A stretch of DNA of 63,934 nucleotides. It comes from a virus. Taxonomy: Duplodnaviria > Caudoviricetes. This document shows positions 1,360-63,934 of the stretch, one piece after another (the stretch's first letter is position 1; every line of letters begins with the position of its first letter). The notes beneath the pieces were generated by a model that ran no database searches, was not told where the DNA came from, and saw only the letters and a list, made by a program, of their open reading frames with translations. The position numbers and the translations under genes were made by a program. The stretch spans positions 1 to 63,934 of the IMG/VR virus record IMGVR_UViG_3300048588_000315; one strand, 5' to 3'.

Positions 1360-1489
1360 GGTACGTTGCGCCTCCTTAGCGCTGTTCAGTCGACGGATCG
1401 ACCTGATCATCGTCGGGGTTGAGGAAGTTAAGATTCGCACTCTTCATCGCCTGTCGTAGCATGGCGATTTCTTCTTCGTTGAGCTTGCC
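1..1489. repeat. Diverged terminal direct repeat, copy 1 (pairs with 62461-63934)
   Basis: Identical over 1-104 and 1363-1489. The middle has many mostly third-position substitutions and is 15 bp longer than copy 2. Confidence 0.95.
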
Positions 1490-1852
1490 GTTAGCAGCGT
1501 CCTTCTCCAGACTGCGAAGCTGAGCCACGAGCTTCTTCGCCTTGTCGATCTTCGGTTGGAGCTTATGGAGCTTTTCCTCCTGACCGATCTTCTTCAGTTG
1601 TGAGACACATGACTGATAGCCTTTCTCGGCTCGTGCCTCGTGATCTTCCCACCACTCAATGTCCTCCTGAAGAACTGCTATCTTCATCTTCAGTTCGGCG
1701 ATGCGACGCTGTGCCTGACCGTTGATGAGCGACTTCCAGAAGTTCATCATGCCGATGAGCTTCGCTCGCTTCACGTACACTGCCTCAGCATCGATCTTCC
1801 TTTTCCGTGCTTTCGCTTTCGCTTCTTTCCTGCTTGCCTTTGATTTCACCAT
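1376..1852 (-). CDS. Hypothetical basic coiled-coil protein
   Basis: 158 aa ORF with strong TAAGGAGG RBS; its stop overlaps the helicase RBS. Confidence 0.85.
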   Translation of the reverse strand: MVKSKASRKEAKAKARKRKIDAEAVYVKRAKLIGMMNFWKSLINGQAQRRIAELKMKIAVLQEDIEWWEDHEARAEKGYQSCVSQLKKIGQEEKLHKLQPKIDKAKKLVAQLRSLEKDAANGKLNEEEIAMLRQAMKSANLNFLNPDDDQVDPSTEQR

Positions 1853-1898
1853 TGTCAGGCCTCCTTAGCCTGCTTCCATTGAAAACTGTTTCTGCCTG

Positions 1899-2240: not shown

Positions 2241-2241
2241 T

Positions 2242-2985
2242 TCACAGCGTCATGTCGGGCCGCATTTTCTTTTCGCCTTCGATGCCATTGGCGTGAAGAC
2301 CGACTTCACGTGCATCGGCGGCTCCCTTGTAATAGGCATCACCGACAACGTTCTTCCTGCGGACGATCGCCTTGCCGAGACCACCCGGTATGTTGGAAGT
2401 GAACCAATCGTTGATGACATCGGCCTTCCGCACTACGATCGCCGTGCATTTGTTGTCCTCGGTCTTCCGCATTTCCTTGGCACGACACACGAGCTCAGCG
2501 ACGAACCCCTCGCAGTACGATGCAGTCTCCGCCGCCTGATTCCTGCGATAGTGCTGAAGCGACATCGCACGGATTGTGGCATGGAGCGCTGTATAGAGCG
2601 ACTTCGCGACTTCCACGTCGCGCTGAAGACCGACGAAATGGATCTCGGTCTTTCCAGTCTTCCACGAACGGATGAATGACTTCGTGTCGCAGATGAGATC
2701 GACGACATACGGCAGAGACTTCCGCCACGACCGAACCGTCTTGCCCGAGAGCTCGACGTAGTCCTCAACTGCCTGGACCCGGCATTGCTGCTGATCCGCT
2801 TGACGAAACATCGCCTCGTCTTCGGCGATGCCATACTTCTGCATCAGCTTCCGGCACTGAGAAGCCGCCGTCGCAGCTTCGTCGACCGTGCATCCACGGT
2901 CGGTTGTCATGCGCATCAGCTTGGCGATCTGCCCGAGGATTCGTTCCTTTGCCGACTGTTCCTTTTCACGCTCTTGCTCTGTCAT
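2242..2985 (-). CDS. DUF2786-family protein
   Basis: N-terminal ERILGQIAKLMRM...EAATAASQCRKLMQKYGI pattern; start moved to the ATG after the TAAGGAGG RBS. Confidence 0.75.
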   Translation of the reverse strand: MTEQEREKEQSAKERILGQIAKLMRMTTDRGCTVDEAATAASQCRKLMQKYGIAEDEAMFRQADQQQCRVQAVEDYVELSGKTVRSWRKSLPYVVDLICDTKSFIRSWKTGKTEIHFVGLQRDVEVAKSLYTALHATIRAMSLQHYRRNQAAETASYCEGFVAELVCRAKEMRKTEDNKCTAIVVRKADVINDWFTSNIPGGLGKAIVRRKNVVGDAYYKGAADAREVGLHANGIEGEKKMRPDMTL

Positions 2986-3015
2986 GGTAGGCCTCCTTAG
3001 CCTATAAGGTTGACT

Positions 3016-3084
3016 GCCTGTTCTCAACGTGAGAGCAGACTGGTCTCCGGCTTACCGTAGCAAGCCGGAGTGCAGTGCGCTGTC
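3016..3084 (-). ncRNA. Structured intergenic leader motif, copy A
   Basis: GACAGC-nn-ACTG-CA-stem-AC-CAGT followed by a CTC..GAG hairpin; covaries with three other copies. Confidence 0.7.
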
Positions 3085-3310
3085 ACCAGTGAATGTCCGT
3101 CGCCGGGATGAGAAGATCGCCTCGTTCGTTAAACGGCAGGCAGATCCAAGCATCTCCGTCTATTCGCAGTTCGTCCAGCGGTCGGGCAAGTCGCGCCCAG
3201 TCATACAAGCTGTTAGATCCATACATGGTCCACAGTTCATTGGGTGAACTGCAATTGAAGTCGCGACATGGATCAGACCTGAGCCCGAACCTGATCGATG
3301 CAATCGACAT
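3083..3310 (-). CDS. Hypothetical protein
   Basis: 75 aa from MSIASI, AAGGAGG RBS. Confidence 0.7.
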   Translation of the reverse strand: MSIASIRFGLRSDPCRDFNCSSPNELWTMYGSNSLYDWARLARPLDELRIDGDAWICLPFNERGDLLIPATDIHW

Positions 3311-3321
3311 AGCGACCTCCT

Positions 3322-3801
3322 TCACAGCAGTGTCGCCGGATCGGCGATGAACTGAATCGCTTCCCATCGCCGGCGCGCATCGGCCAGTACGCGCTCCAAC
3401 GTCGGTCCGTGCATCACGCTGATCTGATCGAGATCGTAGGCCTCACGATGCTCCAAGGCGTTTTTGATGCGAAGGTGCATCTCCTCTTCGGTGATGATCT
3501 CACGATCATCGCGCATCGACCGGAGAACGCTGAACGCCATGAACTTCCATTCAGCATCGTTATGCTTGTAGATCCGGACTTCCAGATCGCCGATGTCATC
3601 CGGTCCCTTGCCCTCGTCGTAGTCGTGGTAGTCGAGGACCCACGAATGGATGCTGTTCGTGTAAGGTGTCCGTGCCGGTTCAACATGCTGACGGAGGGTC
3701 GGCACGACGCTGAAGTCCCAGTGCTTCAGATTTCCGGCTGGCTCCGCCGCTTGAAGGATGCGGGTCGCGACAGGGACGGACAAGTGCGGGTTCTTCGACA
3801 T
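3322..3801 (-). CDS. Hypothetical protein
   Basis: 159 aa from MSKNPH, TAAGGAGG RBS. Confidence 0.8.
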   Translation of the reverse strand: MSKNPHLSVPVATRILQAAEPAGNLKHWDFSVVPTLRQHVEPARTPYTNSIHSWVLDYHDYDEGKGPDDIGDLEVRIYKHNDAEWKFMAFSVLRSMRDDREIITEEEMHLRIKNALEHREAYDLDQISVMHGPTLERVLADARRRWEAIQFIADPATLL

Positions 3802-3863
3802 GGTAGGCCTCCTTAGCCTATGAGGTTGAGACTGGCTCGCTGCTACATTGCAGCGAGCCACAG

Positions 3864-3905
3864 ACAAAGGGAAAGCTCGGCGTTTCCGCCGAGCTCCCGC
3901 TTCCC
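3864..3905 (-). terminator. Probable intrinsic terminator or attenuator hairpin
   Basis: Minus strand AGCTCGGCG-GAAA-CGCCGAGCT followed by TTCCCTTTG; a second hairpin lies at 3833-3860. Confidence 0.5.
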
Positions 3906-3931
3906 GGAATGCGGACCGAGGCGCCGACGAA

Positions 3932-4405
3932 TCAGGCCTTCGCTTCCTCGCCTTCCTCCTCGCTGTCCGGCTTGGCGAGCTCCTTGAGCTGATCCATGGT
4001 GAGACCGGCTTCCTTGAGTTGCTTCTCCAGGTCGGCCAGCGCGTTGATGACGCGAAGTCCCTTCTTGACGACCTTCGCCTGCTTCTCGTCGCCCATCGCG
4101 GCGAGCTGCTTCGCCTTGGTCTCGAGCTTCCCGGCCTTCGCCGTCATCTGCTCGGCCTTGAAGCGAAGCTCAGCGGCAGTGTGTTCGAGATACGCGGCCG
4201 TCGACTTGAAGTCCTTCTTCTTCAGCGGTTTGTTGACCTTGAAGTCGAAGCCGTCGGGGATCGCCTTCTCGAACGGATAGTCCGACTTCTTCGCCGGAGT
4301 GAAGGCGACGCGCTTCTTGCTCGCCTTCTTGTCCGCCTTCTCCGAGCCGGAACCTTGCTGCTGCTGACCACCGACGCGACGCGATTCAGACTGAGACTTG
4401 GCCAT
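3932..4405 (-). CDS. Hypothetical Lys-rich protein
   Basis: 157 aa, AAGGAGG RBS, strongly biased codon use. Confidence 0.85.
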   Translation of the reverse strand: MAKSQSESRRVGGQQQQGSGSEKADKKASKKRVAFTPAKKSDYPFEKAIPDGFDFKVNKPLKKKDFKSTAAYLEHTAAELRFKAEQMTAKAGKLETKAKQLAAMGDEKQAKVVKKGLRVINALADLEKQLKEAGLTMDQLKELAKPDSEEEGEEAKA

Positions 4406-4492
4406 GATAGGCCTCCTTGTTACTGCCGCGGAATTGCGGACAGTGAATCGGCACCGAGGACGTTACTCCGCGATGCCTTTATGAATCAGTGA

Positions 4493-4714
4493 TCAGTGGA
4501 GCAGATCGTACGCTTGCTGAAGCAAGCGAGACACTTGGAGATTGATCTGGCCTCCAAGAGATTCGGATCCTCTGGCGACCGCGGACTCCTGGAAGATATC
4601 CATGAGTGCCGACACGACTTCCTTCTCGCCAGCTTCGCCGATGAGCCGGAGCAGCGCGGCTTTCACGTGATCGACACGAGCCTCGGCCTCAAGCCGGTCA
4701 CCATGCTCCGTCAT
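4493..4714 (-). CDS. Hypothetical protein
   Basis: 73 aa from MTEHGD; ATGA overlap with the upstream stop. Confidence 0.65.
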   Translation of the reverse strand: MTEHGDRLEAEARVDHVKAALLRLIGEAGEKEVVSALMDIFQESAVARGSESLGGQINLQVSRLLQQAYDLLH

Positions 4715-5064
4715 CTTCGAAGTGGCGTTGGAATCGAGAGCGTTGAAGCAGCGCGATGAGCGGCATCCACGGTACGCTCGGTGAAGTCCTCGCTGAGAGG
4801 CGGCACGGCATCGGTCAGCGCTTTCGCGATCGGCTTCAACGCTGGCGTGTAGTGCTGATCGACGCGTTCCTTCGCGTCCTTGTAGATGACGCCGACCGAC
4901 CCGTCCCACTCACCGATGGGCACGACGCCATCTTCGGTGAACGCGCTGCAGATGTCCTTGTCGCCATCCCACTTCGCTTCGAAGTCGATGGCCCGAACCG
5001 CCGCCTTCCAAGACTTGTAGTTGCTGAACTCACGCTCGCCGAGATGATTGATGCTCTTCGCCAT
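4711..5064 (-). CDS. Hypothetical protein (paralog of 5565-5771)
   Basis: 117 aa, TAAGGAGG RBS; WKAAVRAIDFEAKWDG...DG..IGEW matches the 5565 ORF. Confidence 0.8.
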   Translation of the reverse strand: MAKSINHLGEREFSNYKSWKAAVRAIDFEAKWDGDKDICSAFTEDGVVPIGEWDGSVGVIYKDAKERVDQHYTPALKPIAKALTDAVPPLSEDFTERTVDAAHRAASTLSIPTPLRR

Positions 5065-5099
5065 AGTGTAGGCCTCCTTAGCCTAGTGTTGTGAACTGT

Positions 5100-5160
5100 C
5101 CGTCTCAGCATTGAGAGCGGATCGGTCTCGGGCCCGAAGGCCCGAGTGCGATGCGCTGTC
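5100..5160 (-). ncRNA. Structured intergenic leader motif, copy B
   Basis: GACAGC-GC-ATCG-CA-CTCGGGCC-TTCG-GGCCCGAG-AC-CGAT; C(UUCG)G tetraloop on the sense strand. Confidence 0.7.
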
Positions 5161-5162
5161 GC

Positions 5163-5474
5163 TTACTTCAAACTGCCGTCGGCTCGGGCCGCACAGAACT
5201 TCTTCGCGGCCTTCTTCGCCTTGCCTTTCTTCGCCTTGCCTTTCTTCGCCTTGCGATGCTTCGGCTTGCGACGCTTGATCACGTCACCGAGGACGCTGGC
5301 GTCCATCGGCAACGTGAGCTCCTTGCTCGCCTTCGCCTTCAGGCGATCGATGCGGGACTCGATCCGCTTGACTTCCTTGTCACGCTTGCGGAGCAGCGCG
5401 ATGCACTGCTTCTGCAGCTTGCGGATTTCAGACAGGACCGAATCGAACCGACGCTTGCTGAACTGCTTCGACAT
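5163..5474 (-). CDS. Small highly basic protein with histone H1-like KAKKG repeats
   Basis: 103 aa, KAKKGKAKKGKAKKAAKK tail, TAAGGAGG RBS. Confidence 0.8.
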   Translation of the reverse strand: MSKQFSKRRFDSVLSEIRKLQKQCIALLRKRDKEVKRIESRIDRLKAKASKELTLPMDASVLGDVIKRRKPKHRKAKKGKAKKGKAKKAAKKFCAARADGSLK

Positions 5475-5505
5475 GGTAGGCCTCCTTAGCCTAGAACATT
5501 GAATG

Positions 5506-5566
5506 CCACTCTCACCTTGAGAGCGGACCGGTCTCGGGCCCGAAGGCCCGAGTGCGGTACGCTGTC
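5506..5566 (-). ncRNA. Structured intergenic leader motif, copy C
   Basis: GACAGC-GT-ACCG-CA-CTCGGGCC-TTCG-GGCCCGAG-AC-CGGT-CCGCTCTC..GAGAGTGG. Confidence 0.7.
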
Positions 5567-5771
5567 ATCGATACGTGTCAGCGATGACACGCTCGTATCC
5601 CTTCTCTGTCAGCACTGAACCGATGTTGCGCTTCCGCTTCCAGTTGCCGAGAGCGATGCATCCGTCCTTGTCGTACGCCACGATCATGTCACCGCGTCCT
5701 TCGAACTCGGCTTCCGGGTCCAGAGCACGAACTTGCTTCTTCCACGCTTCGAACTTGTTGATCCACTTCAT
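5565..5771 (-). CDS. Hypothetical protein, first gene of the putative early run
   Basis: 68 aa from MKWINK, TAAGGAGG RBS. Confidence 0.75.
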   Translation of the reverse strand: MKWINKFEAWKKQVRALDPEAEFEGRGDMIVAYDKDGCIALGNWKRKRNIGSVLTEKGYERVIADTYR

Positions 5772-5802
5772 ATAGGCCTCCTTAGCCTGATTAGAGAACA
5801 CG

Positions 5803-5871
5803 CTGCACTCAACGCGAGAGCAGTTCGGTCCCGATCCGCTATTGCATACGGATCGGGTGCGAAATGCTGTC
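5803..5871 (-). ncRNA. Structured intergenic leader motif, copy D
   Basis: GACAGC-AT-TTCG-CA-CCCGATCCG..CGGATCGGG-AC-CGAA-CTGCTCTC..GAGTGCAG. Confidence 0.7.
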
Positions 5872-6286
5872 GTTCATTTCACTGAGACCCGTTTCGGCTT
5901 CGCGCGATTCATTGGATTGAGCAGGATCCAAATTTCGCGGTTATCCAAAACGTGTAGCAAGCTACGCTGCTATCACAGCAGTGTCTCACCAGCTTGCTAA
6001 CGGCAGGAAGGATTTTCTTTCGGTGAACGGTTTTCGCCAAATTCATCACCTACGAATCCGTACCCATTTTCTTCACACGACACGATCGGGTCGCAGCAGT
6101 TCTTCACAGAACAAACCACTTTTTCAGGGACTGTTTCGTTGCCTACTTGAGAATCCGGCGGCACGTATTTTCTCGCTCGCGCCATTGCAGAATTCCCGCC
6201 CTGCTTTCCCGCACCGTTTCACGCGTCACGCGTTTTCGTGCGTCCTGCCGTCTTCACTTGTCATTTACTACAGCTATAATTTACCA

Positions 6287-6312
6287 TAACCACTTGTGAT
6301 GACAAGTGGTTA
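6287..6312. promoter_or_regulatory. Operator-like palindrome TAACCACTTGT-GATG-ACAAGTGGTTA
   Basis: Perfect 11-bp inverted repeat with an extra half-site at 6255-6264, in an AT-richer non-coding region next to a TATAAT. Confidence 0.5.
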
Positions 6313-6438: not shown

Positions 6439-6487
6439 GCGGCAGGGCGGCAGGGCCAGCGGCAGGGCGGCAGGGCCAGCGGCAGGA
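6439..6487. repeat. Short GGCAGGGC/GGCAGGGCCAGC microsatellite, inverted relative to the other copies
   Basis: Reverse complement of the 8/12-bp units at 24.5-24.75 kb and 55.06-55.2 kb. Confidence 0.8.
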
Positions 6488-24128: not shown

Positions 24129-25097
24129 TTCTGTCCTTCCTGTCCGCTGGCCCCGACCATTACAGAGTCCGGGTCGCGCCTAGACCGCATACTGGCCCGA
24201 CCCGGACGCTGTAGTAGCCCTGCCGCTGGCCCTGCCGCTGGCGGTCTTTCCAAGGCGGAGCCCTGCCGCCCTGCCGCTCTTTCCAAGGCGGAGCCCTGCC
24301 GCCCTGCCGCTCTTTCCAAGGCGGAGCCCTGCTCCGAGGGCCAGTTTTCCAAGGCGGAGCCCCATTCAGAGGGCCAGTTTTCCAAGGCGGAGCCCCATTC
24401 AGAGGGCCAGTTTTCCAAGGCGGAGCCCCATTCAGAGGGCCAGTTTTCCAAGGCGGAGCCCTGCTCCGAGGGCCAATTTTCCAAGGCGGGAGCCCGCTCA
24501 GAGGGCCCATTTTCCAAGGCGGAGCCCTGCCGCTGGCCCTGCCGCTGGCCCTGCCGCTGGCCCTGCCGCTGGCCCTGCCGCCCTGCCGCCCTGCCGCTGG
24601 CCCTGCCGCTGGCGTATCCGTCCGCTGGAGCGTTTCAGCCGCTATACCCTGCCGCTGTGCCCTGCCGCCCTGCCGCCCTGCCGCTGGCCCTGCCGCTGGC
24701 CCTGCCGCTGGCCCTGCCGCTGGCGCTGGCCCTGCCGCCCTGCCGCTGGCGGTCTTTCCAAGGCGGAGCCCCATTCGGAGGGCCCAATTTCCAAGGCGGG
24801 AGCCCGCTCCGAGGGCCCGATTTCCAAGGCGGGAGCCCGCTCCGAGGGCCCGATTTCCAAGGCGGGAGCCCGCTCCGAGGGCCCGATTTCCAAGGTGGGA
24901 GCCCGCTCCGAGGGCCCAATTTCCAAGGCGGGAGCCCGCTCCGAGGGCCCGATTTCCAAGGTGGGAGCCCGCTCCGAGGGCCCAATTTCCAAGGTGGGAG
25001 CCCGCTCCGAGGGCCCAATTTCCAAGGCGGGAGCCCGCTCCGAGGGCCCAATTTCCAAGGCGGGAGCCCGCTCCGAGGGCCCAATTTCCAAGGCGGA
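24126..25097. repeat. Composite repeat element, copy 1 (hairpin/RBS module + 9x33 bp + 8/12-bp microsatellite + 11x33 bp)
   Basis: TTTCCAAGG heads every 33 bp at 24247-24511 and 24755-25085; about 110 bp unique module shared with 54701-54810. Confidence 0.95.
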
Positions 25098-54703: not shown

Positions 54704-55481
54704 TTTCTGTCCTTCCTGTCCGCTGGCCCCGACCATTACAGAGTCCGGGTCGCGCCTAGACCGCATACTGGCCCGACCCGGACGCTGTAATAGCCCTGCC
54801 GCTGGCGGTCTTTCCAAGGCGGAGCCCCATTCGGAGGGGCCAATTTCCAAGGCGGGAGCCCGCTCGGAGGGCTCATTTTCCAAGGCGGAGCCCCATTCAG
54901 AGGGGCCAATTTCCAAGGCGGGAGCCCGCTCGGAGGGCTCATTTTCCAAGGCGGAGCCCCATTCGGAGGGACCAATTTCCAAGGCGGAGCCCCATTCAGA
55001 GGGCCCATTTTCCAAGGCGGAGCCCCATTCGGAGGGGCCAATTTCCAAGGCGGGAGCCCTGCCGCTGGCCCTGCCGCCCTGCCGCTGGCCCTGCCGCCCT
55101 GCCGCTGGCCCTGCCGCCCTGCCGCTGGCCCTGCCGCCCTGCCGCCCTGCCGCTGGCCCTGCCGCCCTGCCGCTGGCCCTGCCGCCCTGCCGCTGGCCAG
55201 CGGTCTTTCCAAGGCGGAGCCCTGCCGCCCTGCCGCTCTTTCCAAGGCGGGAGCCCGCTCCGAGGGCCCAATTTCCAAGGCGGGAGCCCGCTCCGAGGGC
55301 CCAATTTCCAAGGCGGGAGCCCGCTCCGAGGGCCCAATTTCCAAGGCGGGAGCCCGCTCGGAGGCCTGAATTTCCAAGGCGGGAGCCCGCTCCGAGGGCC
55401 CAATTTCCAAGGCGGGAGCCCGCTCGGAGGCCGGTCTTTCAAACGCCAGCGGCAGGGCGGACCATCGTCTTTCAAACGCCG
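54701..55481. repeat. Composite repeat element, copy 2 (hairpin/RBS module + 8x33 bp + microsatellite + 7x33 bp + 2 degenerate units)
   Basis: Heads every 33 bp at 54811-55042 and 55206-55404; degenerate TTTCAAACGCC heads at 55437 and 55470 stay in register. Confidence 0.95.
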
Positions 55482-56251
55482 GACCGCTGAACCGTCATCA
55501 TGAACGTTTCAGCCGCAAGCGCGTTCCTCAGTTCATCGATGGACGCGTACTCGGCCGCGATGCCCGAAGCGTAGTGGAACACTTGTTCGCGCGGACCGAC
55601 GAGGAAGACCGGCTTCTTGAGAGCGAGCGCAATACCGACTTCGCTGTGCCTTCCGCCTTTAGTTTCTGTATCGCCAGTCAACACCACGACGAAATCCACA
55701 CCGACAATATCTTCCAGATCATGGTCGGCCATCTCCTGCTTCGTGAAGCGTGGATGCTCAGCGTACCCTGAACCCTGTTCCTTCGCCAGATCTATCCATC
55801 GCGCCGTCACCCGGATTCCAGCGCTGCGAAGAGCCGACGCGATCGCCTCGGCTTCATGACGACGAGGAAAGCTGGCGGCGACATACGCCGACAAGGCTTC
55901 TCGCCCTGCCGTTCGCTGGCCGAAGACTTGATACTCGGCGACCGACGCACGATGCTCGCTGACGCCGAGATGCATCAGCGTTTCCTTGAAGTTCCGCCGG
56001 GACGGATCGATGATGCGTGCGCAGATCGCCGGACCGGACTTGACGACAACGGCTCTCACTGAACCGGTATCATCCGTCCGCGTGCCGATCACGCGAACGA
56101 CGTTACCGTCATCCGTCGGGGCCATCCAGACCTGATCCGGCACGAGACCTTTCCCGCCGTCTCGCGTGCGCAGTACTTCACACGCTTTCTCGAACTCGCT
56201 CAGTCCGTACTGATCGATCAGTCTCAACGCTTCTTGAAGCTTTGCTCTCAT
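55472..56251 (-). CDS. Nucleoside 2-deoxyribosyltransferase/hydrolase-like domain protein
   Basis: C-terminal YVAASF...DLEDI...D.VV...GGRHSEVGIALALKKPVFLVG. Confidence 0.75.
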   Translation of the reverse strand: MRAKLQEALRLIDQYGLSEFEKACEVLRTRDGGKGLVPDQVWMAPTDDGNVVRVIGTRTDDTGSVRAVVVKSGPAICARIIDPSRRNFKETLMHLGVSEHRASVAEYQVFGQRTAGREALSAYVAASFPRRHEAEAIASALRSAGIRVTARWIDLAKEQGSGYAEHPRFTKQEMADHDLEDIVGVDFVVVLTGDTETKGGRHSEVGIALALKKPVFLVGPREQVFHYASGIAAEYASIDELRNALAAETFMMTVQRSGV

Positions 56252-56254
56252 GGA

Positions 56255-56920
56255 TCATTTCGCCTTTCCACAGATAAAGAGGTGACGCTTTCGTGAGATA
56301 CCGCCGCTGTCACCACAGCCGAGGTGATCAGCGTAACCGAACGCCGACGACAGGAGACCTTGGATCTCATCAGTGTCCATCTTCGCGCCTTGAATGTTGG
56401 ACTCGAAGAAACACCGACCGCCTTTCGCCACGAGCGAGGCTAGCCATCCGTAGAACGTCGGCAGATAATCAACGTCGAAGTAGTCATCAACCGAACAGCA
56501 GAAGACCACGCTCGCCTTGCCGATCTTCGGCAGGCTGACCCTGAAGTCTGCCTGCCGAAAGTCAACGTGCCCGGACTTGTTCATGCCGTGGAATTCGGCA
56601 ACGTCCCTGCAGAACTGAATCCGTTCATCGTTGAATTCCATGCCGAGGATGTTCCGGCATCCGCGACGCCATGCTTCCCAGCAGAGAGCGCCGACGTTCG
56701 AGCCGACGTCGAACATGGTTTCTTTCGCCAGCGCCGATGGGCTGTCATCGAAGCCAAAGTCGTCGAACCGCTTGATCGTATCCCGAACGTACTCCTCGTT
56801 CTCGAACGGCGGTATGGTCAGCCGAGAGTAGAGACCGTGCGATCGGGTCGTAGACAGACGCTTCCCGCCGCCGCTGAGACGATGGGCCTCGTGGATAAGT
56901 TCGCTCGCAGACTTCATCAT
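56255..56920 (-). CDS. Class I SAM-dependent methyltransferase
   Basis: FDVGSNVG motif I, GMEFN, QADF. Confidence 0.8.
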   Translation of the reverse strand: MMKSASELIHEAHRLSGGGKRLSTTRSHGLYSRLTIPPFENEEYVRDTIKRFDDFGFDDSPSALAKETMFDVGSNVGALCWEAWRRGCRNILGMEFNDERIQFCRDVAEFHGMNKSGHVDFRQADFRVSLPKIGKASVVFCCSVDDYFDVDYLPTFYGWLASLVAKGGRCFFESNIQGAKMDTDEIQGLLSSAFGYADHLGCGDSGGISRKRHLFICGKAK

Positions 56921-57993
56921 GTCCTCGCTTTCTTGGAACTGACAGTGAGCGGAATGAAGGAAGGCTGACCGTACCCGATGTCGTCAGCTGAGAGCCAGTC
57001 TTCCGCTAAGATGGCCTCGTCGGCTTCCGGAGAACCGAACGTAATATTCGGCACGTTCCACCGATAGAAGCCTCCGTGATAGTTGCATTGACGGCACAGG
57101 GGAGACCGCCGGTCCTTGTTCTGCAGCTTCAGTCGCAGCTTGTGATATCGCTCATCGTTCCACAGCTCGACGAGAGAGCGCTCAGCCACGTTGCCGGGAG
57201 ATCCGGCTCCGTAGTAGTCGTCGCAGCATTGGATCATGCTTCCTTTCCAGTTGATGATCATGCTGCGGAACGGCCTCACGCACGAGGCCTTCAGCGGCTC
57301 GGCCAGCGGCTTGGAGAACCACGGGATCGCTCCAGCCCGATTGTCGATGGCGTACCGCATCGACTCCTCGTGCTTCTTCTTGCCGAGATGGATCGACTTG
57401 TCGGCATCACCCGGCTGATATCCGTACCATGGAACGGCTTTCACGGTACGGTAGTCAGCGCCACAGTGTTGGAAGATGTTCCCGCCGATGTGAAGGCGAT
57501 CTACCTTCCGCTGCACTTCGTCGAACCATGCCTTGAACTTCTCGTGTCGCTCCCGTGCTTCGGCGATCCCGCCAGCGATGAGATCCGCATCGCCGGTCCC
57601 GTCGTGCTTGCTGTAGACGTTGATCTGGAACTGATTCAGTCCTGCTTCGAACAACGACACGATGTCCTCCGGTCCGCGAAGCAGATCGCCGTTCGACAAC
57701 ACTGCGATCGACGTTCGCGGGAGAACCTCTCGCACGTGCCGGATGCGATGGCGGATCAGCGGATCGAGTAGCGGTTCGTTGTACGAGTACAGATGCACTC
57801 GGCCTTTGAACTTCAGTTCGGCCAGCTCGAGGATGATCTTGTTCCAGATCGCCTCGTCCATCATCTCCTTCGGTCGCGGCGCATGGCTCTCAGGGCAGAA
57901 CGTGCATCGGCGATTGCAGTGTCCGCATGTCTCAATGCCGATGATGCTGAACAGTCTCGTGTTCTCTTTGGATACGTCGTATGTCTGCGGCAT
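56917..57993 (-). CDS. Radical SAM enzyme with SPASM/Twitch domain
   Basis: CNRRCTFC, NEPLL, SNGDL; C-terminal C.RPF....I...G....CC.D...GNV....L.ELWN...C..C. Confidence 0.9.
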   Translation of the reverse strand: MPQTYDVSKENTRLFSIIGIETCGHCNRRCTFCPESHAPRPKEMMDEAIWNKIILELAELKFKGRVHLYSYNEPLLDPLIRHRIRHVREVLPRTSIAVLSNGDLLRGPEDIVSLFEAGLNQFQINVYSKHDGTGDADLIAGGIAEARERHEKFKAWFDEVQRKVDRLHIGGNIFQHCGADYRTVKAVPWYGYQPGDADKSIHLGKKKHEESMRYAIDNRAGAIPWFSKPLAEPLKASCVRPFRSMIINWKGSMIQCCDDYYGAGSPGNVAERSLVELWNDERYHKLRLKLQNKDRRSPLCRQCNYHGGFYRWNVPNITFGSPEADEAILAEDWLSADDIGYGQPSFIPLTVSSKKART

Positions 57994-59599: not shown

Positions 59600-59647
59600 A
59601 AAACAGTCTCAGCCCGATGCGACAACGAGCCGCATCGGGCTGGACTG
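59600..59647 (-). terminator. Intrinsic terminator
   Basis: Minus strand CAGTC-CAGCCCGATGCG-loop-CGCATCGGGCTG-A-GACTG followed by TTTT. Confidence 0.65.
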
Positions 59648-59660
59648 CTAACTGGTGATG

Positions 59661-60623
59661 TCATGCGTTCGGAGAGCCGACGCCATCGTATTTCTGGCGA
59701 GGCTTGCCTTGACCGAGCCGAACCCGTTCGTACTTGTCGAACTCGCACAGCGAGTGCTCGATCTCGCGCAGCTCGAACGGAGGCCAGATCTCACACTGCG
59801 CATCGAACGAACCGAGTGAGTCCTTGTACTGCCGCCGGTCGGCGATCCGCTTCTTCTTCCACAGATGCGGATGATGCCATCGCACGTTATCCGGCAACTG
59901 ATGGACAGCGGCATGGTTCCACAGCGAGAACATGGAGGACAGCGTCGGCTCCTTGCCGATACGACGCAATCCACGCTTCGCTCCCGGGCCGACGTTCGCC
60001 CACGTGTCAACGTCGCACGGATCGGTGATGAAGATGCTTCGCTGGAACCGCATGTCGCATACCATTTCGTATGCGATGAACGGGCCGACGAAGTGCGTCT
60101 TCCGCAGGGCATGGAACATCGCTTCCATGCTGTTCTCCGTGTGAGCGAGAAGCAGCAGTTCGCCGGATCGCTGAAGCAATTCTCGAACCGAGTTCTTGTA
60201 CGAGATGAACTTCGGTATGCCAGCTTCGCCGCCGGTCATGTGCGCTGAGGTGAAGATCTTATCGCCAGCGCGATACTTGACCTCCAGCGCATCGAGAACT
60301 TCTTTCGCCGTGTAGCAGTACCCTGGAGTCTCGGCGTGTTCGTAGTGGTTGAACAGCCGATACCAACAGATGTTGAACACGTCGAGCATCGGCATGTATC
60401 GCGTGTCCTTCTGTCCACGCTCGAGCATGTCCAGCAGTGCGACGGTTCCCTTGTCGAGCTGACGGAACACGTTTGTGAACTTGTACTGCTGCATGATCTT
60501 GTCCGTGGTCCACGGCCTCGGATTTCCGGCGTCACGCGATTGCCAAATCGCGTGACGCCGACCGATCCACGTGAAGAACCGGCTCACTGTTGAGGAGCCG
60601 TCTTCGAAATCGCGCTTTCCCAT
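59661..60623 (-). CDS. aGPT-Pplase1-like (amino acid:DNA transferase) base-hypermodification enzyme
   Basis: R..IW...PWT.D.I...YKFTNV.R..D.GT, GPFIAYE...D, N.GPGA.RGL, EIEHSLCEFDKY. Confidence 0.88.
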   Translation of the reverse strand: MGKRDFEDGSSTVSRFFTWIGRRHAIWQSRDAGNPRPWTTDKIMQQYKFTNVFRQLDKGTVALLDMLERGQKDTRYMPMLDVFNICWYRLFNHYEHAETPGYCYTAKEVLDALEVKYRAGDKIFTSAHMTGGEAGIPKFISYKNSVRELLQRSGELLLLAHTENSMEAMFHALRKTHFVGPFIAYEMVCDMRFQRSIFITDPCDVDTWANVGPGAKRGLRRIGKEPTLSSMFSLWNHAAVHQLPDNVRWHHPHLWKKKRIADRRQYKDSLGSFDAQCEIWPPFELREIEHSLCEFDKYERVRLGQGKPRQKYDGVGSPNA

Positions 60624-60823
60624 TGCTTCGCCTTTCTGTCCACTTCCTTGAGCAACTCTTCACTGAGCAACTCTTCGCGGTGGACGAGTATGTTTGGATC
60701 GAACTCCGACAGAACGGTCATGTTCTTGCCATTGAACCGGCACGTGAACCGACCGAGGATGTTTCCATCCTTGTCCCGAACGATGATTCGCTGACCTTGT
60801 TTTCGGTGGACTTCAAGCGCCAT
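60584..60823 (-). CDS. CsrA/RsmA-like RNA-binding protein
   Basis: MALEVHRKQGQRIIV ... FDPNILVHREELL aligns with CsrA MLILTRRVGETLMI ... NAPKEVSVHREEIY; AAGGAG RBS. Confidence 0.7.
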   Translation of the reverse strand: MALEVHRKQGQRIIVRDKDGNILGRFTCRFNGKNMTVLSEFDPNILVHREELLSEELLKEVDRKAKQWESAISKTAPQQ

Positions 60824-61718
60824 TGATCTGCTCCTTCTTGCATTCGTTCGGGGTCTTGTCATCACGGAAGCGGATGAAGCGAGGGAACTCCAAACCGCCT
60901 TTCGCGAGGACGGACTGATACTCGACTTCGATCACCTTGCCGAGAACGTCGGCCGACTTGAGATGCCGCCGAAGTTCATCGCTCAGGCCAGTGCCGACGC
61001 GGCCGATGCCGACCAGCTTCTTGCCATCGTACAAGCCGATGCCGAGAGCGCCGAGTTCGCCGAAGTACTTCCCAGTCCCGGGGATGAACTCGGTCACCAC
61101 GACATCGCACGTTGCCCGGACCTTGATGCGATACCATCGATCCCAGTGAGCATCCTTGATCACGATGCCCTCCCACTTGCGATCGAGACAGACCTTCCGC
61201 ACGACCTCGGTCAGCATGGAAGCGATCCCGCGACTGGAGTCCCAGATGGCCCGCTGCTCGTTGATGAACTCATCAACGTAGAAGGCCGGGATGAACGGGA
61301 TCCCCCATTCCTTCATCATGGACTCGACGGCATCGAGATCCCATTCAGTGCGATCGCGTCCGGCCCAGAGCGGATTCGCGAAGACATTGAACGCGACCGT
61401 CTCCGGCGTGTTGATCATCGCCTGAATCACGTTGCTGGCCCGGTCTTCGGTGGTCGCTAGCTCGCCGTCGAGCACTGTGGACTTCGGCAGATCGAGAGCC
61501 ATCTTGTAGATGGCCGGGATCTCCTTCATGCGATCCCAGTAGTCGGTCTTCCCGGCGATCGCGTTGATCGTGCCTCGCTCGTTCTTCACAAGCGTAACGC
61601 GATGACCGTTACGCTTCCGCTGGCCCCATATCACCGACTCGCCTTTATAGTCGGTAGGCTTCGGGCGGTTGATGGCGTACTCAAGAGGCTTCATTGCTTG
61701 CTTTCCAAACGCTGTCAT
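60813..61718 (-). CDS. ATP-dependent DNA ligase
   Basis: KRNGHR (motif I), LDGEL, EGIVIK, RVGTG, FPRF.RFRDDK. Confidence 0.92.
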   Translation of the reverse strand: MTAFGKQAMKPLEYAINRPKPTDYKGESVIWGQRKRNGHRVTLVKNERGTINAIAGKTDYWDRMKEIPAIYKMALDLPKSTVLDGELATTEDRASNVIQAMINTPETVAFNVFANPLWAGRDRTEWDLDAVESMMKEWGIPFIPAFYVDEFINEQRAIWDSSRGIASMLTEVVRKVCLDRKWEGIVIKDAHWDRWYRIKVRATCDVVVTEFIPGTGKYFGELGALGIGLYDGKKLVGIGRVGTGLSDELRRHLKSADVLGKVIEVEYQSVLAKGGLEFPRFIRFRDDKTPNECKKEQINGA

Positions 61719-61776
61719 GATCCTAGCTCCTTACTAGAAAGTGTAACGGATCCTGCCTCACACGAGGACAGGATTC

Positions 61777-63804
61777 TCATTCATCCTCTTCGAGTTCCGA
61801 CTCGACGAGGCGGCTCATCATTTCCCTGATGTCTTGGATCTCCATCGCCATCTTCCGTTTGCCGACAACTCGCTTGCGGATTTCTTCATCGATGGTTCCC
61901 GGCACGGTGAGATCGGTGATGCGAACGTTCCGTCTCGTGCCGCGACGGTGAGCTCGGTCCTCGGCCTGCGAACGCTTGACCGCGCTCCAGTCGCACGACA
62001 TGAAGATTTCATGATCGCAGTACATGTCCGAATCGCTCGGGTTCGCAGGATCGTAGCCGAGCAAGTTCAGGCCCTCAGCCGCCGAAGCCGGATTGCCGAG
62101 GAAGATGGTGACGTCCTTGTCCTGATTGAAGATCCGTGCAGCTTCATGGACTTCCTTCACTCGATACTTCGGGTGAGTGAGAGGATGATAGGACACGTGG
62201 TTGATACCTTCCTTGGCAAGCGCTTCCGACACGACGCGGATGTCTTCCACGAAGTGGCACCAGATGATCCGCTTCGACTTCGGATCGGCTTCCGTGTCTT
62301 CGCGATGGATGTCAAGGATGGCCTGGACCTTCGGGTTTCCGCCGGGGATCTGCTCCACTCGCGGATTGTTCATCGTTGATCCGTCTTCACCATGCTGAGC
62401 ATCCCACCGAACGTGTCCGCTCGTGATCTGCGCCAGTCGCAGCAGTCGCGTCAGCACGTGCTCGGCTGTGATGACCCGTCCTTCAGCGGCTGCTCTCGCC
62501 AGTTCTTCTTCGATGGCCGCGATCATGGCCTCGGCGAGATCGACATACAGCTTTCGCTGCTTCGGTTGCATCGTAACTTCATAGACGTCCCATGTCTTCT
62601 CCGGCAGACCGAGATTCGCTTCGGCCTTCGTGATGGAGAATGAGATGCGAGCCAAGCGCTCCTTGATGAGAGGCACGTTCTGGAGGGCGACCAGCTTCTC
62701 GAATCCGCCTTTCGACTTCTCATAGACGCCATGGAAAGTACGGAACACTTTGTAGCTCATGAACCCGGACAATCCGCTGTCCAGGAACTCAAGCTGCGAC
62801 CAGAGGTCCATCGGGTTGTTCGCGATCGGGGTTCCCGTCAGGATCAAGCGGCGATCGGCGAGATCGCGGATGTTCCGGCTGTTCTTCGAGCGCTTGCTGT
62901 TCGGCGCTTTGATGTAGTGGGACTCGTCAAGGATCATGATGTCCCACGGGATCCGGCTGAAGGCCTCCATCGTATTGTGCAAGGCCTCGTACGAACAGAC
63001 GCAAGCTGAGAACGCACAGTCATCCTCTTGCCGGACAGCTTCCGTCAACCCGCGGATCCGCCTCACCTTTCCACCGCGAATGACCACGACCTTTCCCGGC
63101 ACGGTGGAGAAGCGACCGAACTCGTTCGCCCAGTTCATTCGCACTTGCTTCGGCGCTACGATGAGAGCACGATACATTCCTTTTCCGGCTTGCATCTTCT
63201 GCTGTGCCTCGTAGCCGACGCGAGCGATGGCGATCGGCGTCTTGCCGGTCCCTTGCTGCATGAACAGCGCGAAGTACGACTGCTGTAGCTGACAGAGCAG
63301 CGCGGTTCGCTGATAGCCTGACAGCGGCAGTTCGGGGTGATCGATGAAGTCCTTCGGAAGTTCCGGCACGATGTTATTGATCTTGAAGTTCGCGGCCGTC
63401 ACTGCCGTCTTGTTCTGGCTGAAGAACCGAAGCAGGAGATAGCGGTACAGATTCTTCGCTGCTTCGGTCTTGAAGATCAGCCGATCGGCAGGCCATGCGT
63501 GACGGATCAGGATCGCGGTGAAATCCGTTCCGGCCAGCTTCCACGTGTCGCCATCAAGATGGTCTCGTTCCGGCACTCGCTTGAACCACTTCCTCGCGTC
63601 GTAGGACGGAGTCCAGTTCACCATCTCTCCGTTGCGAACACAGATCGCCGTCGCGATGAACCGAGTACCGTCTTCATCGAGATCGAGCAGCAGTCGATCC
63701 GTGTCAGTCAGGCGAAGCTGCTCCAGCGTGTGACCGGTCGCCCGACTTAGTGGCTCCAACGTGGGGAGCATGCCGAGAAGTTCTAATGCGTTATCGTTTT
63801 CCAT
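61777..63804 (-). CDS. SNF2/DEAD-like helicase, allele B (complete, 675 aa)
   Basis: QGTGKT, ILDESH, LTGTP, EGLNL, QAEDRAHR motifs; start MENDNA after TAAGGAGG. Confidence 0.93.
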   Translation of the reverse strand: MENDNALELLGMLPTLEPLSRATGHTLEQLRLTDTDRLLLDLDEDGTRFIATAICVRNGEMVNWTPSYDARKWFKRVPERDHLDGDTWKLAGTDFTAILIRHAWPADRLIFKTEAAKNLYRYLLLRFFSQNKTAVTAANFKINNIVPELPKDFIDHPELPLSGYQRTALLCQLQQSYFALFMQQGTGKTPIAIARVGYEAQQKMQAGKGMYRALIVAPKQVRMNWANEFGRFSTVPGKVVVIRGGKVRRIRGLTEAVRQEDDCAFSACVCSYEALHNTMEAFSRIPWDIMILDESHYIKAPNSKRSKNSRNIRDLADRRLILTGTPIANNPMDLWSQLEFLDSGLSGFMSYKVFRTFHGVYEKSKGGFEKLVALQNVPLIKERLARISFSITKAEANLGLPEKTWDVYEVTMQPKQRKLYVDLAEAMIAAIEEELARAAAEGRVITAEHVLTRLLRLAQITSGHVRWDAQHGEDGSTMNNPRVEQIPGGNPKVQAILDIHREDTEADPKSKRIIWCHFVEDIRVVSEALAKEGINHVSYHPLTHPKYRVKEVHEAARIFNQDKDVTIFLGNPASAAEGLNLLGYDPANPSDSDMYCDHEIFMSCDWSAVKRSQAEDRAHRRGTRRNVRITDLTVPGTIDEEIRKRVVGKRKMAMEIQDIREMMSRLVESELEEDE

Positions 63805-63934
63805 AGGACGTTGCGCCTCCTTAGCGCTGTTCAGTCGACGGATCGACCTGATCATCGTCGGGGTTGAGGAAGTTAAGATTCGCACTCTTCATCGCCTGTC
63901 GTAGCATGGCGATTTCTTCTTCGTTGAGCTTGCC
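62461..63934. repeat. Diverged terminal direct repeat, copy 2
   Basis: Matches 1-1489; the last 127 bp are identical to 1363-1489. Confidence 0.95.
63821..63934 (-). CDS. 3' end of the 1376-1852 gene (duplicate, partial)
   Basis: Identical to 1376-1489. Confidence 0.85.
   Translation of the reverse strand, partial: GKLNEEEIAMLRQAMKSANLNFLNPDDDQVDPSTEQR

Follow-up and report, generated by a model that had tools for sequence, protein, structure and literature searches.

The analysis of the window (the whole stretch of phage DNA studied, 63,934 nucleotides, virus record IMGVR_UViG_3300048588_000315) confirmed a set of RNA hairpins that hold the SD sequences of eight genes, are confined to one early operon and are shaped like a textbook CsrA/RsmA ligand. 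A CsrA-family protein may use the hairpins as operators, and the phage's own candidate, the predicted protein P0001, is the likeliest one; we consider this reading possible, at somewhat below even likelihood. The wider proposal of a phage with a self-contained translational timer, in which an ultra-divergent CsrA-family protein would shut off the eight genes with AAGGA-loop hairpins, is put forward more tentatively.

Organisation of the early operon

The early operon forms one unit with a promoter-like site at its head and a terminator-like hairpin at its end. Its main features are listed below.

6278..6305, minus strand: sigma-70-like promoter candidate (TTGTCA, 16 nt, TAAATT, with TG) from a consensus scan, function putative
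5772..6272, minus strand: leader of about 500 nt without coding signal, strongly structured (RNAfold MFE -179.7 kcal/mol)
2985..2242, minus strand: DUF2786/DUF7168 protein gene
63804..61777, minus strand: SNF2 helicase gene
61718..60813, minus strand: ATP-dependent ligase gene
60584..60823, minus strand: P0001 (79 aa), candidate CsrA-like protein, the penultimate gene of the operon
59661..60623, minus strand: 5-hmdU DNA kinase gene (Pfam PF18723, E=1.9e-40), the final gene of the operon
59610..59642, minus strand: terminator-like hairpin closing the operon, with 14 stem pairs, 10 of them G-C, and a T-rich tail behind the stem

The promoter candidate sits in an AT-rich gap, which is flanked by the DNA polymerase gene and the first small gene. 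When GGA hairpin decoys were looked for in the leader, only the GGA of the SD was found in a short hairpin loop, and Rfam gave no match in this region at the gathering score or at E<=1; neither approach revealed a sponge RNA. The genes of the kinase and P0001 overlap by 40 nt, and the terminator expected one gene after the CsrA-like ORF was recovered as the terminator-like hairpin at 59642-59610. A gene encoding an HTH regulator lies elsewhere in the genome (47846..47235).

Hairpins at the ribosome binding sites

The motif TAAGGAG occurs ten times in the window, compared with a mean of 2.97 (sd 1.66) in shuffled sequences, none of which (0/100) reached ten copies. Nine copies are minus-strand ones, located in the two intervals 61727-63823 and 1372-5784; each of the nine precedes an ATG and has complementary arms on either side, the ATG following 2-8 nt past the 3' arm. 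The hairpin sites, together with one decayed copy, are as follows.

5774..5788, minus strand: SD hairpin AGGC-UAAGGAG-GCCU, before gene 5771..5565
5477..5493, minus strand: SD hairpin UAGGC-UAAGGAG-GCCUA, before gene 5474..5163
5069..5085, minus strand: SD hairpin UAGGC-UAAGGAG-GCCUA, before gene 5064..4711
4408..4418, minus strand: decayed copy with the 3' half AAGGAGGCCUA kept and the 5' arm lost, before gene 4405..3932
3804..3820, minus strand: SD hairpin UAGGC-UAAGGAG-GCCUA, before gene 3801..3322
2988..3004, minus strand: SD hairpin UAGGC-UAAGGAG-GCCUA, before gene 2985..2242
1856..1872, minus strand: SD hairpin CAGGC-UAAGGAG-GCCUG, outer pair compensated from U-A to C-G, before gene 1852..1376
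1368..1382, minus strand: the helicase hairpin a second time, where the window ends overlap at 87% identity
63813..63827, minus strand: SD hairpin GCGC-UAAGGAG-GCGC, preceding the SNF2 helicase gene, with a UAA that is also the stop of the gene upstream
61721..61739, minus strand: SD hairpin UUCUAG-UAAGGAG-CUAGGA with one U.G pair, before the ATP-dependent ligase gene

Positions 1-1489 and 62461-63934 are 86.9% identical in an alignment of the window ends. Since the ends overlap at about 87% identity, the two helicase sites are copies of one site, and the number of genes is eight. The original prediction had named eight genes with a UAAGGAG-loop hairpin at the SD, and all nine copies, with the helicase site occurring twice, have the arms it described. 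The exception concerns the stem placed at 1857-1871, where the hairpin is present but its extent is one pair longer (CAGGC/GCCTG, 1856-1872). The consensus in the window is TAGGCTAAGGAGGCCTA. The stem is absent from the RBSs of the genes starting at 3310, 4405, 4714, 60823 and 60623, the first two of which had been predicted to lack it.

The stems also differ between sites in a compensated manner, as previously claimed. In the covariation set (nine rows, six of them distinct), 93.3% of the stem cells are paired compared with 66.4% in shuffles, all five stem pairs (5/5) change on both sides, and the covariation score was reached by 0/500 shuffles; in slid controls the covariation collapses. As one invariant loop is carried on three unrelated stem sequences, the element is better understood as an RNA hairpin than as a DNA half-site.

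RNAfold applied to the region -40..+15 placed the hairpin in the minimum-energy fold at 8/9 sites, the ligase site being the exception; folded in isolation, the hairpins, that of the ligase included, gave -5.9 to -9.1 kcal/mol. At seven of the eight positive sites the GGA of the GGAG core is unpaired with a probability of about 0.97-1.0 and the final G is paired, while the loop pairing of g1852 was not read, as the script took an upstream GGAA. The predicted fold is an AAGGA pentaloop with a U.G closing pair.

In start lists hand-curated from the ORF heuristics of this analysis, from which the duplicate helicase copy and ORF 2245-1865 (in a tandem repeat, without coding signal) were dropped, a GGA hairpin is found at 8/13 early-operon starts and at 1/56 others (Fisher p=1.3e-6), so that the enrichment check suggested earlier gave a clear result. 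The lone hairpin among the 56 other starts is a different motif and none of the identified virion genes has a hairpin, in line with the former statement that late-gene RBSs lack the stem. Likewise, an SD match of at least 7 nt is present at 10/13 early-operon starts vs 0/56 others (p=8e-10). Within the operon, the hairpin is present at 8/9 starts that have a real intergenic gap and absent where starts overlap or are coupled. An ORF-free hairpin count was also made, giving 44 in the window vs 19.5±5.0 simulated and 20 vs 14.0±3.9 in phage phi297; it was set aside because the window count is inflated by tandem repeats and the measure is too noisy.

The repeated intergenic module

An intergenic module about 95 nt long is repeated and includes six of the hairpin copies, the stems at the helicase and ligase genes being independent of it.

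2983..3088, minus strand: repeated module; further copies by alignment at 5769-5875, 5472-5570 and 5062-5170, with a looser one at 3799-3905

The module starts at a stop codon, followed by a conserved stretch and a hairpin A with covarying stems; then come an inverted repeat GCUCUCA/UGAGA(G), a CAGUnCAA stretch, the SD hairpin and the ATG. The consensus scan detected no promoter-like site inside the modules. Read by eye, four modules have a TGAGA element 16-18 nt upstream of TAGGCT, which is a weak pattern.

Sequence analysis of P0001

P0001 is a coding sequence, with a codon score of +0.31 vs -0.41 and -0.51 in the other frames. Its conserved part terminates in ..VHREEL, and the β1 and VHREE motifs are retained. 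The search of 60584-60823 against the CsrA profile PF02599, proposed earlier as a check, went against the prediction: in the hmmscan of Pfam this family was absent at E<=10 and its gathering score of 27 bits was not reached. The six-frame search of the whole record with PF02599 likewise gave 0 matches at E<=10 (one candidate scored), and the PDB sequence search returned SoxZ alone (E=1.6). BLASTP against E. coli CsrA aligned six residues at E=0.035, pairing VHREEL (47-52) with VHREEI (42-47) and placing R49 opposite the critical R44, in an alignment that is statistically weak; hhalign, also weak at a probability of 2.4%, placed V5 opposite the critical L4.

A homologue search from E. coli CsrA returned near-identical CsrAs only, and seven phage CsrAs were taken instead for our own profile of eight sequences. 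P0001 scored 4.5 bits with it, a value matched by 12/2000 shuffles, and ranked third of 874 window segments, two unrelated segments scoring higher. No RegA or RegB family was matched by P0001 in Pfam or PHROGs.

In the search for relatives, the word-index search found P0001 itself only (1/2 candidates), none of 77 pattern matches in viral contigs was confirmed, and tblastn against phages gave one chance match (E=9). The full phmmer search listed 38 other proteins at E<=0.001, all of them long and with multi-stretch matches around a DKDGN(I/V)LG hairpin. They were rejected as repeat-inflated chance, since 6/6 scanned are Big_6 Ig-repeat proteins.

Structure models of P0001

The ESMFold2 homodimer of P0001 scored 0.63 (runs 0.59, 0.67 and 0.63), compared with 0.00 for the best control, and showed 195-209 contacts, of which the runs had at least 83% in common, with a partner pLDDT that did not fall below 73. 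The mark used for such models is reached by 21/30 proteins solved as one-chain pairs and by 0/23 solved single-chain proteins. The contacts with the least error link residues 12-17 with 45-50' (antiparallel) and 36-37 with 5-6'. They fit the β2-β5' and β4-β1' pairing of RsmA, whose sheet order is described in the available part of the source as β5A-β2B-β3B-β4B-β1A, and are in register with the hhalign alignment. The pass denotes likeness rather than binding, as the model may remember solved CsrA dimers.

The structural neighbours of P0001 in the protein atlas are viral clusters with PF02599 in 96% and 88% of members, at TM 0.55-0.69 over residues 1-57; the atlas feature scores of 0.82-0.84 are under the tool's own bar. 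The evidence in favour of the fold stems entirely from a single family of language models. The AlphaFold2 monomer has a pLDDT of 53, with three strands and a helix only. Foldseek of this monomer against the PDB gave 0 matches at E<=0.001 and the wide VIA-align search a best Z of 3.0 (START-like), and because the model is too poor these monomer searches carry no meaning.

The dimer model, the atlas neighbours and the VHREE motif speak for the CsrA-like character assigned to ORF 60823..60584, while no profile or sequence test supports it; P0001 is most likely a highly divergent strand-swapped CsrA-like dimer, judging from these models. The same holds for the CsrA-type repressor originally proposed, of which the hairpin set proved real and ligand-shaped but no sequence test was significant for P0001.

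Proposed function of the hairpins

We propose that each hairpin is a translational operator at the RNA level. Its stem of 4-6 bp, with a closing U.G, would display the central part of an exceptionally long SD (UAAGGAG[G]) in a pentaloop, AAGGA, 2-8 nt before the AUG. Almost all genes with an initiation of their own in one early operon, transcribed by the host RNA polymerase, would carry this mark. As P0001 accumulates, it may occupy the loops in competition with the 30S subunit and lower the expression of the upstream early genes, and the hairpin-free P0001 and kinase genes would escape repression. Host CsrA/RsmA may also bind these loops.

Such loops agree with CsrA SELEX and with the RsmE/RsmN structures, in which, in the available parts of the reports, A(N)GGA is recognised where a hairpin loop covers the SD; for RsmZ-2 they give a loop AAGGAU on a 5-bp stem. 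As csrA genes are rare in phages, a chance pairing of csrA with such sites would be uncommon, if P0001 is CsrA-like. Against the proposal, each leader has a single GGA site, although full CsrA repression is described in the accessible text as often needing two, and the invariant loop can also be explained by pairing with 16S rRNA alone.

If the proposal is true, this would be the first function for a phage CsrA-type gene, a structured-RNA counterpart of T4 RegA and an early-gene shut-off mechanism outside the T4 group. It would also mean that CsrA-like proteins reach far past detection by profile searches, and would suggest a role for hairpin-type start-associated sequences in general. The case is compact: the natural variants of the putative operator, eight in number, include stem-compensated forms and a decayed half-site, and a 79-aa candidate regulator lies next to them. 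If the link with P0001 fails, the hairpins would be a clear standardised, structure-insulated RBS cassette.

Comparison with known systems

The sites resemble those of CsrA/RsmA in having A(N)GGA in a short hairpin loop that overlaps the SD, as in the portions of the literature available, and P0001 is modelled as a small strand-swapped homodimer with β2-β5' and β4-β1' pairing; the VHREE motif is kept, and statistically weak alignments give it an equivalent of R44. In contrast to that family, P0001 fails the Pfam CsrA profile and all sequence tests, its β2-β3 region is five residues longer, and the conserved AP in the β4-β5 loop is missing. Moreover, there is one site per leader here, and the candidate regulator and its putative targets lie in one phage operon.

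Searches easily find csrA genes in phages: they turned up in 88/50,697 records, with 48-100% identity to E. coli CsrA across the matched part. A 2020 survey, as far as its accessible text goes, reports phage csrA in 30/2517 genomes and calls its role untested. Phage csrA alleles are listed in Table S7 of PMC7366521, which might show whether forms as divergent as P0001 are known. Carrying a CsrA-family gene would be shared with such phages (e.g., the RsmM type in Pseudomonas phages), and the CsrA-bearing phi297 likewise has its csrA gene in an early leftward operon. Unlike the present phage, phi297 has no hairpin-RBS set (5/68 starts). The phrases phage-encoded CsrA, phage CsrA and viral CsrA did not appear among the matches listed in the literature search.

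Start-associated RBS motifs of mycobacteriophages have been known since 2011 and were still described in 2025, in the text available, as of unverified function. According to the accessible descriptions, the SAS of cluster K mycobacteriophages (GGG-AUAGGAG-CCC, 3-7 bp before the ATG) and the ESAS share with the present set a repeated short motif, symmetric on the outside, whose 7-nt centre holds AGGAG, a position a few nt before the start (mostly ATG), one orientation and restriction to non-structural genes, often with an inverted repeat directly upstream. All nine copies here precede ATG starts of the early operon in one orientation, a placement like that of the SASs. However, the SAS consensus GGGATAGGAGCCC (at most two departures) does not cover the window's TAGGCTAAGGAGGCCTA, the two having in common the AGGAG core and the symmetric layout. 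The stems here are also longer (4-6 bp) and compensated, which the accessible parts of the SAS descriptions do not report, the host type is presumably another, and a CsrA-like candidate partner is present.

Phage-encoded shut-down of early genes at the ribosome binding site is likewise known, from the portions of the sources available, for T4 RegA and RegB: RegA acts as a competitor of the ribosome on some 30 mRNAs, and RegB cuts the GGAG of early SDs. They differ from the present case in that RegA sites are described there as AU-rich and unstructured, and RNA structure as protecting against RegB. The PeSL cassettes of T4-like phages, as far as the available text describes them, are similarly repeated between small early ORFs and have a stem-loop followed by SD and start; the modules here differ in that no sigma-70 promoter was detected and the SD itself is inside a hairpin.

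Alternative explanations

Nearly as likely as operators for a CsrA-family protein is a standard RBS cassette that acts in cis only, because mycobacteriophages have start-associated, hairpin-like RBS motifs for which the accessible descriptions name no partner. P0001 would then be an unrelated small ORFan, and the stem would both insulate a very strong SD from highly structured intergenic RNA and keep it open in the loop, letting the early genes win ribosomes, with no dedicated reader protein. This is consistent with the SDs of the early operon, strong even without the stem, with the lack of hairpins at overlapping, coupled starts, and with the six copies of a module that carries two further hairpins. 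The CsrA sequence tests on P0001 at noise level, the identical inner hairpin in unrelated metagenome contigs and the similar SASs of cluster K, whose accessible descriptions name no partner protein, point the same way. Translation should, however, be lowered when the last SD bases are paired in a stem of -6 to -9 kcal/mol, and such a cassette leaves unexplained an operon protein modelled as a CsrA-type swapped dimer with viral CsrA neighbours in the atlas.

It is improbable that host CsrA/RsmA, rather than a phage protein, reads the hairpins, whether by tying early expression to the Csr state or by being soaked up on the abundant early transcript: the leader has no extra GGA hairpins, and intervals of 300-1200 nt separate the sites, whereas known sponge RNAs pack theirs densely. 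Such a role would suit the ligand shape of the sites and the patch of similarity to Pseudomonas phage PaMx74, which hints at a proteobacterial host; proteobacterial hosts usually possess CsrA/RsmA. A composite mobile cassette (terminator-like stem-loop, possible promoter or RNase site, SD and start) serving mRNA processing or stability and gene shuffling is quite improbable. It would account for modules that run from the upstream stop codon via hairpin A to the ATG, for the TGAGA element seen by eye, and for the resemblance to PeSLs, whose order between small early ORFs is stem-loop, promoter, SD and start codon in the available text. No promoter site was found within the modules by the scan, though, a transcript starting at TAGGCT would lose the SD, and the helicase and ligase hairpins persist without the remaining module. 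Hardly any credence can be given to DNA operators for a dimeric phage repressor, even if a 5 bp, 7 bp, 5 bp palindrome is of classic operator size and the genome encodes the HTH regulator mentioned above, as the three arm sequences are unrelated, their common part is an asymmetric centre only, and every copy has a fixed place relative to a start codon, on the same strand throughout. Antitermination hairpins of the lambda boxB type, which occur once or twice per operon and not at every RBS, were dropped. T7-type promoters were dropped as well, a phage RNA polymerase being absent among the proteins scanned.

Occurrence in other sequences

These searches revealed no relative of P0001 or of the phage. 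The blastn search with the early 8 kb for phage relatives yielded four records whose patches cover 1-5% of the query, and the helicase protein gave no locus in viral contigs. A DNA patch of 100 nt is 73% identical to Pseudomonas phage PaMx74. The hairpin 15-mer was found at 95 viral loci, with at least two hairpin sites in 1/190 strand-loci (L070). This locus was rejected: arms of 4 bp flank only two of its ten TAAGGAG RBSs, in many of which the TAA doubles as the stop of the preceding gene, no protein is common with the window, and PF02599 was not matched. The hairpin 18-mer occurs in four short metagenome contigs, and the inner hairpin is identical in unrelated metagenome contigs.

Genome organisation and the presumed early operon

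The 63,934-base IMG/VR virus record is rated complete and has a G+C content of 57.6%. All convincing genes lie on the minus strand, and the tRNA search detected no tRNA genes in the window. The first 1,489 bases (1-1489) and the last 1,474 bases (62461-63934) align at 86.9% identity; the record is therefore closed by overlapping ends that have diverged and contains the start of the helicase gene in two copies. The overlap of ~1.49 kb comprises the end of gene 1852 (genes are named here by their start positions) and ~450 codons from the start of the helicase gene, and the two helicase N-termini diverge directly after their common ribosome binding site. Rather than a true terminal repeat, this looks like a circular genome whose closure joins two strain variants.

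The transcription unit analysed below reads as follows:

6305-6278, minus strand, sigma-70-like promoter candidate, upstream boundary
5771, 5474, 5064, 4714, 4405, 3801, 3310, 2985 and 1852, minus strand, nine mostly small genes
helicase, ligase, P0001 and 5-hydroxymethyl-dU (hmdU) kinase genes, minus strand, following in this order
59642-59610, minus strand, strong terminator-like hairpin, downstream boundary

Judging by their location behind the sole promoter-like site and by the gene content, these are presumably early genes. The terminator-like hairpin lies one gene after the candidate CsrA-like reading frame, as originally noted.

Hairpin ribosome binding sites

The heptamer TAAGGAG occurs 10 times in the window against 2.97 expected. 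Nine of them lie on the coding strand, confined to the run from 5784 to 1372 plus 63823 and 61733; each has an ATG downstream and complementary arms on both sides, at the positions originally listed. As the two helicase hairpins are one site present in both copies of the overlap, eight genes carry the element, in agreement with the original prediction, which had also described stems that differ with compensation. The latter was upheld by a covariation analysis of every coding-strand TAAGGAG copy, in whose choice the presence of a stem played no part: 93.3% of stem cells were paired versus 66.4% in shuffles, two-sided changes were found at all five stem positions, and the covariation score was reached by none of 500 shuffles. 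Sliding the partner by one column, used as a control, abolished the signal.

RNAfold placed the hairpin within the minimum-energy structure at eight of the nine sites (55-nt context) and added a U.G pair closing the loop, which leaves an AAGGA pentaloop. At seven of those eight sites the GGAG core had its GGA unpaired, with a probability of about 0.97-1.0 for these three bases, and its last G paired; the site left out of this reading is that of gene 1852, for which the script took an upstream GGAA instead. The ligase hairpin forms in isolation only (-5.9 kcal/mol), the remaining hairpins having energies of -6.0 to -9.1 kcal/mol. The hairpin ribosome binding sites are confirmed and statistically strong. 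An extra imperfect hairpin (AUCCUG.CCUC ... GAGG.CAGGAU, ~61750-61774) was seen by eye in the gap that separates the helicase stop codon from the ligase hairpin.

The expected concentration of the hairpins in the early run was borne out genome-wide: they precede 8 of the 13 starts of the unit versus 1 of the 56 elsewhere (p=1.3e-6; start lists hand-curated from our own ORF heuristics), and Shine-Dalgarno (SD) matches of at least 7 nt occur at 10/13 and 0/56 starts, respectively. Of the nine starts in the unit that follow a real intergenic gap, eight have the hairpin; the exception, 4405, is a decayed copy that keeps the 3' half only. The hairpin is missing at 4714, 3310, 60823 and 60623, starts that overlap the upstream gene or lie 11 nt after it. 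The sites before 3310 and 4405 had already been recognised as stemless.

Six of the hairpins have (U/C)AGGC arms in common. Four of these, and a fifth more loosely, form the 3' end of a ~95-nt intergenic module repeated after successive genes, which comprises, in this order, the stop codon, a conserved segment, a G+C-rich hairpin with stems that vary among copies with compensation, an inverted repeat GCUCUCA/UGAGAG, a CAGUnCAA stretch and the SD hairpin. Duplication therefore accounts for part of the hairpin uniformity. The helicase (GCGC) and ligase (UUCUAG) stems occur without the rest of the module, and the outer pair at 1852 is compensated; thus, the hairpin itself is under selection.

The candidate CsrA-like protein

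P0001 is the 79-aa product of the reading frame 60823..60584 (minus strand). It is preceded by the SD sequence AAGGAG and shares 11 nt with the ligase gene and 40 nt with the kinase gene. Its codon score is positive in its own frame alone; we take it to be a real gene.

The proposed CsrA identity found no support at the sequence level. The CsrA family profile PF02599 matched neither P0001 nor any of the six frames of the record at E<=10, and CsrA was absent among the PDB sequence matches of P0001. The BLASTP alignment with Escherichia coli CsrA covers VHREE(L/I) alone (E=0.035). A custom profile of eight sequences, E. coli CsrA plus seven from phages, gave 4.5 bits, which was equalled or exceeded by 12 of 2000 shuffles and outscored by two unrelated segments among 874 from the window, and hhalign returned a probability of 2.4%. 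The sole database matches, to giant proteins with Ig repeats, were repeat-inflated and rejected. The AlphaFold2 monomer was poor (pLDDT 53), and fold searches with it yielded nothing relevant.

Other lines speak for a likeness to CsrA. The two pieces aligned by HMMER, at a noise-level score, follow each other as they do in CsrA and correspond to β1-β2 and β5, the strands with which CsrA binds RNA. In the weak hhalign alignment, the whole core aligns to CsrA given a 5-residue insertion, at a place where some phage CsrAs also carry insertions, with V5 at CsrA L4 and R49 at R44, residues named in a review as the most critical of CsrA. Viral clusters carrying PF02599 were among the nearest to P0001 in the protein atlas, with feature scores of 0.82-0.84, under the tool's own bar, and by structure with TM 0.55-0.69 over residues 1-57. 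The homodimer model scored 0.63 versus 0.00 for three controls, with ~200 contacts and pLDDT up to 74-78. The contacts that the model defines best join residues 12-17 of one chain to 45-50 of its partner, and 36-37 to 5-6; they fit the strand swap known from the RsmA sandwich (β2-β5' and β4-β1'). These positive lines come from one family of language models throughout and may reflect memory of CsrA, so they indicate likeness and fall short of proof; on balance, P0001 somewhat probably has the CsrA fold.

The product of the second early gene (5163-5474) is 103 aa long and has a lysine-rich tail, which a 15-bp tandem repeat (5212-5269) underlies. It could be nucleic-acid-binding, hence another candidate trans factor.

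Possible function of the hairpins

The hairpins resemble two known kinds of element, CsrA-type operators and start-associated sequences. CsrA-family proteins are described as binding A(N)GGA where the loop of a short hairpin displays it over the SD sequence, blocking the 30S subunit. Reported SELEX winners have mostly 6-nt loops and four or fewer contiguous pairs, and hairpin 2 of RsmZ presents AAGGAU on a stem of five G-C pairs; the window's AAGGA loops on 4-6 pairs fit this ligand shape. P0001 would be a repressor encoded at the far end of the ~10-kb operon, with its operator on upstream genes; its own gene and the last gene (kinase) being without operator, it would exert delayed negative feedback on the upstream genes. 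Such feedback from this layout is plausible, and T4 is reported to reach a similar end through RegA and RegB. True csrA genes are described as rare in phages, so P0001, if really CsrA-like, is unlikely to accompany such sites by chance.

The main rival, which we consider nearly as probable as the main reading, is a ribosome binding cassette acting only in cis. Pairing with 16S rRNA explains the invariant loop in full, and each leader has one GGA, whereas CsrA is reported often to need two. Among described elements, the nearest counterpart is the start-associated sequence of cluster K mycobacteriophages; it shares this layout and, in the published account, has no assigned partner or function. 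Moreover, in phi297, the sole CsrA-bearing phage checked, any such hairpin occurs at only 5 of 68 starts. Sensing or titration of host CsrA/RsmA through the hairpins and a PeSL-like composite cassette are lesser possibilities, as is a DNA operator, against which stand three unrelated arm sequences round one asymmetric centre, on one strand throughout.

That the hairpins are operators of a CsrA-family protein, most likely the phage's own P0001, with binding and repression as predicted, is plausible but hinges on the predicted fold of an orphan protein; for this whole chain we put the chances slightly short of even.

Similar elements in other genomes

The exact element is rare: among 95 viral loci with the 15-mer, just one has two hairpin sites. 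In the contig concerned, an unrelated viral one of 54 kb (L070, 3658-7222), ten TAAGGAG ribosome sites precede small ORFs within 3.6 kb. There the heptamer mainly supplies both a stop codon and an SD where small genes are coupled, TAA being the stop of the upstream ORF in several; 4-bp arms occur at two of the ten sites only, and no CsrA profile match was found in that record. No Rfam family matched.

Three short metagenome contigs (L111, ~875-945; L112, minus strand; L113, ~732-802) carry the window's inner hairpin unchanged (UAGGCUAAGGAGGCCUA), nested within a second stem of 10-11 bp that buries the AUG of a small ORF (about -24 to -26 kcal/mol) and varies between contigs with compensation. 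This ORF is conserved, basic and Cys-rich, with 54-58 aa. In Pseudomonas phage phi297, isolated hairpin ribosome binding sites with arms resembling those of the window precede the replication protein (19252, AGGCC-GAAGGA-GGCCU) and a CI-like repressor (17558, AAUAA-GGAGGC-UUAUU).

Other features of the genome

The identified genes encode the SNF2 helicase, ATP-dependent ligase, 5-hmdU DNA kinase, a radical-SAM protein, a methyltransferase, family A DNA polymerase, a thymidylate-synthase-like protein, a primase zinc finger, and terminase, portal, capsid and tape-measure proteins. The window proteins scanned included no phage RNA polymerase; the phage collection searched contained no close relative, and a search of viral contigs with the helicase protein found none either. 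In view of the following set, the phage may hypermodify the thymidine of its DNA:

59661-60623, minus strand, 5-hmdU DNA kinase
56917-57993, minus strand, radical-SAM/SPASM protein
56255-56917, minus strand, methyltransferase
55472-56251, minus strand, nucleoside deoxyribosyltransferase-like protein
9487-10530, minus strand, thymidylate-synthase-like protein

Four places in the genome carry tandem repeats, which belong to two families (24229-25096 and 54811-55430; also 1899-2226, 6439-6486, 24524-24750 and 55056-55198). One family has a 33-bp unit, repeated 3 to 10 times per array (periods 33, 66, 99), the other a G+C-rich unit of 8-20 bp (GGGCCGCAG type, coding strand) with ~46 copies at 1899-2214. 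The ORF 2245-1865, over a repeat array, is without coding signal. One array lies within the early operon and another just upstream of its promoter candidate; the repeats could be iterons or protein-binding arrays.
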